From IMG/VR virus record IMGVR_UViG_2541047794_000002, positions 1 through 51,929 of that record: DNA of 51,929 bases; one strand, written 5' to 3'. Origin of the DNA: a virus. Taxonomy: Duplodnaviria > Heunggongvirae > Uroviricota > Caudoviricetes. The translations under genes were made by a program, and so were the position numbers. The notes below the pieces were generated by a model that was given only the letters and a program-made list of their open reading frames with translations, did not search any database and was not told where the DNA came from. The first letter of the stretch is position 1, and every line of letters starts with the position of its first letter. This document shows, piece after piece, positions 32,511-33,902 of this stretch.

Positions 32511-33551
32511 ATGAGTGGTTTATATTCGCCAGCGGAGTTAATACAGACTGTTAATGCCGAAGATATTCAATGGCAGATTAACTCTTTATTTATAAACCTG
32601 TTTTTTAAGCGAGTCGTTACATTTGAGACGCGGGATATTGCGCTTGATATTATTGACGATCCAGACATCCCGATGGCTGCATTTTGTTCCCCTATGGTTG
32701 GTAGTAAAGTATCACGCGATGAAGGCTACGAATCAAAAGTAATTCGCCCTGGCTACATGAAGCCAAAAAGTAGTATAGACCCAAATAAAATAGCCGTTCG
32801 TCAACCAGGCGTATCACCGGAACAATTCAATGCATATTCATCACGCAATTTCAAAATAAAGCGAGCGATGGTAAGACAAGCGCAGGCCATTCGCGCACGT
32901 ATTGAATGGCTTGCTGTTCAGGCAATCACAACGGGGAAAAATATCATTGAGGGCGATGGCATTGAACGTTATGAACTGGACTGGAATATAAAACCACAAA
33001 ATATTATCACGCAGTCCGGCGGCACGGAGTGGAGCGGTAGAGATTTATCAACATTTGATCCAAATGATGACATCGAAGAGTACGCAGAAATCAGCGAAGG
33101 GACTACAAATATCATCGTAATGGGACGCAACGTATGGAAAAAATACCGCGCCTTTAAAGCAGTAAAAGATTGCCTTGATACTCGACGGGGATCTAATTCC
33201 GTTCTTGAAACGGCCCTGAAAAATCTTGGGGATTCCGTCAGTTTTAAGGGTTACGTAGGCGATGTGGCTATTGTTGTGTATAGCGGACGTTATACCGACG
33301 AGGACGGAACAGAAAAATATTTCCTTGATCCTGATTTGATGGTTCTTGGCAATACATCACTTCAGGGCATCGTTGCATACGGTGGCATTCAGGATCCGGA
33401 GCTAATCCGAATGGGGCTGACTAAAGCCGAACTCGCACCGAAAAACTACATTGTGCCTGGAGATCCGGCTATTGAGTACGTACAAACGCACTCTGCACCA
33501 CAGCCAATACCGGCCCGCATCAATCGTTTTGTTACCGTTCGCATTGGTTAA
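32511..33551 (+). CDS. Major capsid protein homolog (lambda gpE family) encoded by the element
   Basis: 346 aa aligning along its length with lambda E (ITQSGGTEWS, FKAVKD-LDTRRGSNS-LETA, GDVAIVVYSG, PGYMKPK); clearly divergent from the interrupted prophage E. Confidence 0.85.
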   Translation: MSGLYSPAELIQTVNAEDIQWQINSLFINLFFKRVVTFETRDIALDIIDDPDIPMAAFCSPMVGSKVSRDEGYESKVIRPGYMKPKSSIDPNKIAVRQPGVSPEQFNAYSSRNFKIKRAMVRQAQAIRARIEWLAVQAITTGKNIIEGDGIERYELDWNIKPQNIITQSGGTEWSGRDLSTFDPNDDIEEYAEISEGTTNIIVMGRNVWKKYRAFKAVKDCLDTRRGSNSVLETALKNLGDSVSFKGYVGDVAIVVYSGRYTDEDGTEKYFLDPDLMVLGNTSLQGIVAYGGIQDPELIRMGLTKAELAPKNYIVPGDPAIEYVQTHSAPQPIPARINRFVTVRIG

Positions 33552-33560
33552 GGGGGAGCA

Positions 33561-33902
33561 ATGGCTACTCATTACACTGAACTCATGGCTGGCACTGAAG
33601 CACTGGTTACTACGTTGGGGATATTTTCAGCTAATAAAGGGGTAATTCCTGCATTTACGCCACTGATGCAAGAAGATGCAACTGGTGCACTGGTGGTATG
33701 GGATGGAACGAGCGCAGGCAAAGCTGTTTATGTTTCCGCTGTACAAATCGATACAGCGACAAAAACGCAGGCTCAGGTTTATAAAACCGGCGTCTTAAAT
33801 GTTGATGCTCTGAACTGGCCTGAGTCTGTAACACAACTATCAGCAAAAGTTGCTGCGTTTGTTGGCTCAGGTATTTCTGTTCAGCCGCTGGCACGTGTGT
33901 GA
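33561..33902 (+). CDS. Decoration protein homolog (lambda gpD-like)
   Basis: 113 aa, similar length and motifs to gpD (LVVWDGTSAGKAV...YKTGVLNVDALNWPE), directly after the capsid gene as D-E are paired in lambda. Confidence 0.7.
   Translation: MATHYTELMAGTEALVTTLGIFSANKGVIPAFTPLMQEDATGALVVWDGTSAGKAVYVSAVQIDTATKTQAQVYKTGVLNVDALNWPESVTQLSAKVAAFVGSGISVQPLARV

Follow-up and report, generated by a model that had tools for sequence, protein, structure and literature searches.

A satellite lodged in the capsid gene of a lambda-like prophage, with capsid and decoration homologs of its own, and its relation to helper-embedded islands of the 11capE type

Capsid homologs encoded by phage satellites have been described for SaPIbov5 (the Ccm protein), PmCI172 and the phage-inducible chromosomal island (PICI) EcCICFT073 (c1499) (PMC6893505). 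Deletion of either c1499 (capsid) or c1500 (decoration) from EcCICFT073 left both its transfer (Table 1 of that study) and its interference with lambda unchanged, and the DNA recovered from its particles was all phage-sized (PMC6092414), in agreement with Dokland's 2019 review. The interference of this island is due to Rpp, which acts on the small terminase; the Rpp proteins are 144–153 aa long and heterodimerise with the helper small terminase, and a crystal structure of RppC has been published. A PICI embedded in its helper (HE-PICI), 11capE, was described by Tommasini, Mageeney and Williams (NAR Genomics and Bioinformatics 2023, PMC10111431), who located another 201 copies at this site and saw, in experiments on the type element, that the satellite excises after composite replication. 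Here, these systems were compared with a 51,929-nucleotide Caudoviricetes sequence (IMG/VR record IMGVR_UViG_2541047794_000002, positions 1 to 51,929; this whole stretch is further referred to as the window), filled by a lambda-like prophage whose capsid gene E is split by an element of 11,438 bp with a capsid and a decoration homolog of its own (E-like and D-like; together, the E/D pair). The element is almost certainly an HE-PICI of the published "11capE / E:Phage_cap_E" type. The reading as a whole, i.e. an HE-PICI of the capE type whose E/D pair is auxiliary and does not determine capsid size, is favored with moderate confidence, while for the auxiliary, non-size-determining role of the pair taken by itself the balance of evidence is only slightly positive.

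The late open reading frames (ORFs) of the helper keep the lambda order on the plus strand, with Nu1 at 18997, A at 19517, W, B (21642), C (23110) and a head decoration gene of the lambda D type (24544–24882), followed past the element by FI (37404) and the tail genes. The helper cosN cohesive end GGGCGGCGACCT (18808–18819, plus strand), located upstream of Nu1, was identical to the 12-nt cohesive end of lambda. The element sits in helper E and is co-oriented with the late genes: its named genes are on the plus strand, with the abortive-infection gene and a few unnamed ORFs on the opposite one. The 5' part of E (codons 1–82; 24938–25182, plus strand) and its 3' part (codons 83–341 and the stop; 36621–37401, plus strand) matched residues 1–82 and 80–341 of the spliced protein, respectively, at 100% in tblastn, and the reading frame of the 5' part continues into the element DNA up to a stop at 25213. 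The same 10-bp core, AGCCGAAGCA, was read at attL (25173–25182, plus strand), where it agrees with the 10-bp identity block of 11capE (PMC10111431), and at attR (36611–36620, plus strand). Joining the E halves across one core copy gave a 341-aa protein with five substitutions in comparison with lambda gpE (PDB 7VI9). Hence, as in other HE-PICIs, a short identity block is present at attL and attR, whose recombination restores a late gene. The initial annotation of this region had considered helper E as disrupted, which is correct in so far as the gene is interrupted; however, since the core is identical at both junctions, excision between the two copies could rebuild an intact lambda-type E, and the disruption is, judging from the cores, reversible. 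Its further statement that the only intact E-family gene of the window belongs to the element holds for the integrated state: three E-family segments were detected by tblastn, namely the two helper halves and the element gene.

The E-like gene (32511–33551, plus strand, 346 aa) had been annotated as a full-length but strongly diverged relative of gpE, followed by a gpD-sized homolog, and both assignments, including the exact coordinates of the former, were confirmed. The E-like protein matched Pfam Phage_cap_E over residues 8–343 (3.4e-42) with 145.1 bits against a curated cut-off of 22.9, which places it in this family with its HK97-type fold, and its end-to-end alignment with the spliced E of the helper had 143 identical residues out of 344 (42%, E=7e-86). 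Its best sequence match in the PDB was 3BQW (1.3e-122), with lambda gpE 7VI9 at 3.7e-77. The AlphaFold2 model (mean predicted local distance difference test score, pLDDT, 82.6; predicted template modelling score, pTM, 0.84) superposed on 3BQW with a template modelling (TM) score of 0.96 and a root mean square deviation of 1.7 Å, and on the crystal structure of lambda gpE, 7SJ5, with a TM score of 0.92, confirming the HK97-type fold. Entry 3BQW, a crystal structure of an Escherichia coli CFT073 protein labelled "putative capsid protein of prophage", is 54% identical to the E-like protein. Its sequence was near-identical to P0042, encoded by a PICI that occupies a chromosomal site between the ycfD and phoQ regions; we infer that both represent the EcCICFT073 c1499 protein type. 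The D-like gene (33561–33902, plus strand) encodes a 113-aa protein of the gpD/SHP family (Pfam HDPD 2.6e-16; 60.2 bits against a cut-off of 29.1), which is 40% identical to helper D and has the head decoration protein 1TD0/1TD3 as its closest PDB match (8.7e-17), followed by lambda gpD 7VII (9.2e-13). In the element, as in all satellites checked, E precedes D, in contrast to the helper and phage head modules, in which D precedes E.

The homologs of the E-like protein fell into two groups: the first, 51–100% identical (355–777 bits), had a satellite context wherever checked, while the second, 38–44% identical (at most 283 bits), belonged to ordinary phage head modules. The satellite contexts of the pair included a chromosomal E. 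coli PICI, PICIs adjacent to fis in Serratia and Lelliottia and an Edwardsiella satellite located inside a helper portal gene. A one-residue variant of the window E-like protein was found inside a prophage E gene in seven of eight sampled contigs and at a chromosomal site in the eighth, annotated complete E. coli genomes showed the same split "major capsid protein" flanks, and at least 80% of the gene pair was matched by megablast in 395 out of 5,426 complete E. coli genomes. Between two E-like alleles of capE-embedded satellites, the ratio of nonsynonymous to synonymous substitutions (dN/dS) was 0.09 (dS about 1.1), with 0.12 for D-like. The pair regularly forms part of the late zone in Gram-negative PICIs. 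Being found also in PICIs at chromosomal sites and in a satellite inside a portal gene whose helper E is intact, it is not specifically linked to E disruption; judging from these comparisons, it is an old satellite-specific lineage under strong purifying selection. Such selection on a matched shell-plus-cement pair would imply a function that was missed by laboratory tests. A recent capture of the E-like gene from the helper was rejected, given its 42% identity to helper E and its grouping with satellite homologs of other genera. The satellite clade had specific fixed differences at 12 positions. The equivalent of lambda W308, a residue replaced with alanine in the gpE protein crystallised for PDB 7SJ5, was Y in the window E-like protein and in 12 of the 19 satellite-clade sequences and W in all 14 phage sequences; this change is conservative and no functional conclusion was drawn from it.

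Several observations on the relatives concern the pair itself. The two E-like alleles of the capE-embedded satellites (window 32511–33551 and positions 12951–13991 of related locus L001) were 84% identical in protein, with their differences seemingly concentrated, by eye, in the N-terminal 45 or so residues, while the adjoining D-like proteins were 94% identical and the flanks 96–99%, which points to allele exchange inside the satellite late zone. In the Edwardsiella tarda locus (L016), the satellite with the E-like/D-like pair occupies positions 1–9900 within the helper portal gene, and helper D and E (12191–13626) are intact just downstream. The fis-adjacent PICI of Lelliottia (L017, 8001–10752) has a gene of an S49 protease (lambda C type) directly after the pair, i.e. 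a larger partial head module than that in the window.

Putative packaging functions of the element are located downstream of the pair. A cos-like site on the plus strand (34281–34353) was found by blastn with the helper cos region, 85% identical over 73 nt to helper cos 18776–18848; its central 12-mer is GGGCGGAAGGCG against GGGCGGCGACCT in the helper, while the helper cos flanks are kept. If nicked at helper-equivalent positions, it would give satellite cohesive ends that do not match those of the helper. Another match to the lambda cohesive 12-mer, with one mismatch, inside the primase gene at 30687 was rejected as a cos site, being within chance expectation. Next to the cos-like site there is a gene for a Nu1-type small terminase homolog (34449–35000, plus strand; Pfam Phage_Nu1 1.1e-24, PHROG 57 terminase small subunit 3.2e-53), 36% identical to helper Nu1 over the full length with the C-terminal half best conserved (183-aa ORF; 180 aa in orthologs), which probably recruits helper gpA to the satellite DNA. 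This protein had no PDB sequence match at E<=1, including RppC, which the PDB should hold, or the N-domain of lambda Nu1. As a full-length Nu1 homolog without a match to RppC at this threshold, it was rejected as an Rpp. Portal, protease, scaffold, connector and large terminase genes were absent among the element ORFs according to Pfam and PHROGs, and the element therefore depends on the helper for these functions, as the initial annotation had assumed for the portal, protease and scaffold. Four element copies amount to 45.75 kb, or 94% of the lambda genome length, so a four-copy concatemer would fit a full-size lambda head, provided that not every cos site is cut by the terminase, which has been proposed for EcCICFT073.

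Taken together, the following course of events would be consistent with these features. Upon induction, the composite prophage would excise and replicate, as shown for the type element. Recombination of the two 10-bp cores by the satellite integrase and AlpA would then free the 11,438-bp satellite and rebuild an intact lambda-type E, a step that the sequence makes possible, with excision shown for the type element. The satellite would then replicate from its own primase and iterons, and the Nu1-type small terminase, together with the cos variant of the satellite, would bring helper gpA to the satellite concatemers, as suggested by homology. The DNA would be packaged into heads built on the helper portal, protease and scaffold, to which helper tails are joined. 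Full-size heads filled with multimers (4 x 11.44 = 45.8 kb), the mode shown for EcCICFT073, are the most likely outcome. In this scheme, the E/D pair would be an auxiliary, non-essential capsid component, expressed late, partly via read-through of the helper late transcription, and could supply additional or replacement capsomers as long as helper E stays interrupted.

Several points weigh against this scheme. The window pair shares only about 55% identity with its EcCICFT073 counterparts, whose island is not embedded, so that the negative results obtained there may not transfer. For a pair kept throughout Enterobacterales at a dN/dS of about 0.1, "dispensable" is a difficult label, and a real function must exist. 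No virions were detectable for the type HE-PICI (PMC10111431). Finally, both late read-through expression and co-assembly are steps that we infer.

The initial annotation had proposed that the element builds its own, possibly smaller shell. In this reading, E-like and D-like form a satellite-specific shell, perhaps with a smaller T number, on the helper portal, scaffold and protease, into which monomers are packaged. It would account for a matched pair under purifying selection in a satellite-only clade, for E-like being the only intact E gene during integration and for the presence of an own cos-like site and small terminase. It also has precedents in PmCI172, which encodes a capsid homolog and makes small capsids, and in SaPIbov5, whose Ccm redirects capsid size, and a rough scaling by volume puts an 11.4-kb monomer at about 84% of the capacity of a T=3 shell. 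However, excision restores helper E, the pair is present where helper E was never interrupted, and EcCICFT073, with the same pair, packages only phage-sized DNA and tolerates either deletion without an effect on transfer or interference. Because of this absence of a deletion phenotype and the phage-sized DNA, a separate small shell set by the E/D pair is not supported, and we consider this reading unlikely. A related reading for the helper-embedded satellites, in which the pair builds satellite-made or chimeric shells on the helper portal and scaffold while helper E is split, also appears doubtful; if true, it would make such satellites an intermediate between classical PICIs and capsid-forming PICIs (cf-PICIs).

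A second alternative, already raised in the published discussion by Tommasini et al. (PMC10111431), is that the pair represents an intact spare, replacing the interrupted helper capsid gene before or without excision. The interruption of E and the co-orientation of the satellite genes with the late operon are in line with this. However, the pair occurs equally in chromosomal PICIs and in the portal-embedded satellite where helper E is intact, and therefore a backup cannot be its general role, while the identity of just 42% to helper E bears on the compatibility with the helper scaffold, portal and D; such a role is improbable here. The weakest alternative, that capsids of the helper or of competing lambdoid phages are poisoned or altered by co-assembly with the satellite homolog, or that the homolog decoys capsid-sensing immunity, might draw on the 12 fixed clade-specific differences, the Y at the W308 equivalent and the AbiJ-like gene adjoining the late zone of an island type that commonly carries anti-phage cargo, but has little probability, as deletion of c1499 or c1500 did not relieve the lambda interference in EcCICFT073, which is there due to Rpp.

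Outside the capsid pair, the element has the layout of Gram-negative PICIs: int and alpA on the left, a primase-replicase and, 3' of this gene, the probable origin, then a late/packaging zone; its 11,438 bp fall within their size range of 10–20 kb. The complete order is int, alpA, small genes of unknown function, DUF4222, primase, iterons, a frameshifted ssb, E-like, D-like, a second alpA-like gene, the cos-like site, the Nu1-type gene, a 91-aa gene and, on the opposite strand, the AbiJ-like gene. The tyrosine integrase (25346–26581, plus strand; 411 aa from ATG, within an ORF opening at 25295) has the expected Arm-DNA-bind_3 (4.1e-19) and Phage_integrase (1.2e-16) Pfam architecture, a comparison made at the level of domains, and 411-aa orthologs were present at the same position in related loci; the left end of the element was 98–99.7% identical in DNA to elements at the same site. 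The integrases of HE-PICIs form a single clade. A doubled motif (TGTATTGCA twice) is located just within both element ends (25283–25330 and 36510–36533); it may represent arm-type integrase sites and perhaps the "doubled DNA motif" called unique to HE-PICIs by Tommasini et al. The integrase gene is followed by alpA (26574–26810, plus strand; Pfam Phage_AlpA 3.1e-15), with a role in excision and regulation, and, further downstream, by a DUF4222 gene (29252–29551, plus strand; 9e-24), located upstream of the primase and conserved in related PICIs. The primase/replicase (29548–31299, plus strand) combines D5_N (1.1e-16) and DUF5906 (2.6e-10). Just 3' of it, three iterons AAAGCCCTCTACC (31308–31481, plus strand) are formed by the direct-repeat families D2/D3; given that PICI replication origins map 3' of pri (PMC6092414), they are the probable satellite replication origin. 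The following ssb (31840–32246, plus strand) is frameshifted in the window copy by a 4-bp deletion (CAGTCAGT to CAGT near 31950) when compared with a near-identical relative (L002), in which the 136-aa ssb is intact; in another relative (L003, with the left end 99.7% identical), the ssb call was likewise shortened, to 111 aa. The window copy is a mosaic: the left 6.1 kb match one relative at 99.7% identity, the right 5 kb a different one at 99.4%.

In the late zone, the pair is followed by a second helix-turn-helix gene of the AlpA family (33912–34256, plus strand; Pfam Phage_AlpA 2.1e-09, PHROG 2790 excisionase/transcriptional regulator 4.2e-39), and the order E, D, alpA-like recurs in Serratia. 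Past the Nu1-type gene there is a 91-aa gene of unknown function (35012–35287, plus strand; PHROG 1561 8.8e-46), also found in related loci, and then an accessory abortive-infection gene (35690–36451, minus strand; Pfam Abi_C 1.3e-23, PADLOC AbiJ 2.2e-21). The slot between the late zone and attR contains variable cargo: AbiJ-like/Abi_C in the window, an AF_1680-family gene in two relatives (L004/L008, 12230–13546) and a TIR-domain gene in E. coli IAI39 (L015, 11275–12417), which suggests a hotspot of anti-phage defence. An Rfam scan of 24900–37000 for immunity RNAs of the C4/isrK type, known in some HE-PICIs, gave nothing at the gathering threshold. A scan of 31200–36700 for promoters and terminators produced fewer promoter-like sites than in shuffled sequence and no convincing plus-strand terminator, and was thus uninformative on E-like expression.

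Elsewhere in the prophage, a low-GC block (36–40%, 9000–12700) of its early/middle region contains genes for a 508-aa large serine recombinase (9739–11265) and, on the opposite strand, a BD-FAE/alpha-beta hydrolase (11615–12658), while a porin gene (15168–16310) is located beyond it; the genes of the block and the porin are probably moron or secondary-insertion cargo. A 287-aa DUF7946/DUF7947 protein (4540–5403, minus strand), adjoining a cI-like repressor gene (5470–6198), had a weak PADLOC match to the candidate defence family PDC-S42 (1.5e-4).

The initial annotation had set the element apart from the known strategies, but Ccm, PmCI172 and c1499 were already known (PMC6893505), as was the exact configuration (PMC10111431). 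With the cf-PICIs of the EcCIEDL933 type the element shares a PICI backbone (int, alpA and rep) combined with capsid genes. In contrast to the cf-PICIs, which encode a capsid protein, protease, portal, connectors, HNH and both terminase subunits, it contains only E, D and a small terminase, and its membership in that group was rejected, as it has no portal, protease, connectors or large terminase. With SaPIbov5 and PmCI172 it shares a diverged HK97-fold homolog of the helper capsid protein; however, Ccm redirects capsid size without doing away with the need for the helper capsid protein, while the closest model of the E. coli lineage gives phage-sized DNA. This model, EcCICFT073 (Fillol-Salom 2018, 2019) with its 3BQW-type protein, has the same capsid-then-decoration pair (c1499/c1500) downstream of pri and ssb, the same fold and a cos-type packaging with lambdoid helpers; the differences are the divergence of the pair, the chromosomal integration in the ycfD/phoQ region (a locus identity deduced as above) rather than in a prophage, and a 144-aa RppA where the window element has a full-length Nu1 homolog. 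Satellite homologs of capsid and decoration proteins have been on record since 2018, and a crystal structure of one of them since 2008; our literature searches found no later work on their function.

The closest counterpart is Eco567.11capE in prophage 61icd of E. coli NRG857c (PMC10111431): an 11-kb satellite inside, and co-oriented with, a lambda-type E, with a 10-bp identity block at both att sites (attL, attR), integration, replication and late genes in the same order and an E-family capsid gene of its own, in which the att-equivalent has diverged (AGCCAAAAAG against the core AGCCGAAGCA). The window element is another copy, whose best full-length matches in complete E. coli genomes were 93–96% identical over 69–83% of the element, and differs in being a mosaic of segments 99% identical to different relatives and in its frameshifted ssb and AbiJ-like cargo. 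A parasite that sits inside the helper capsid gene, withholds helper capsid production until excision and rides the helper replication and late transcription was thus described in 2023, and the window provides a further natural example of this embedded configuration and no new kind of system. Its E/D pair is widespread and strongly conserved without a known phenotype, and the window represents a natural example in which the function of such a pair could be tested.

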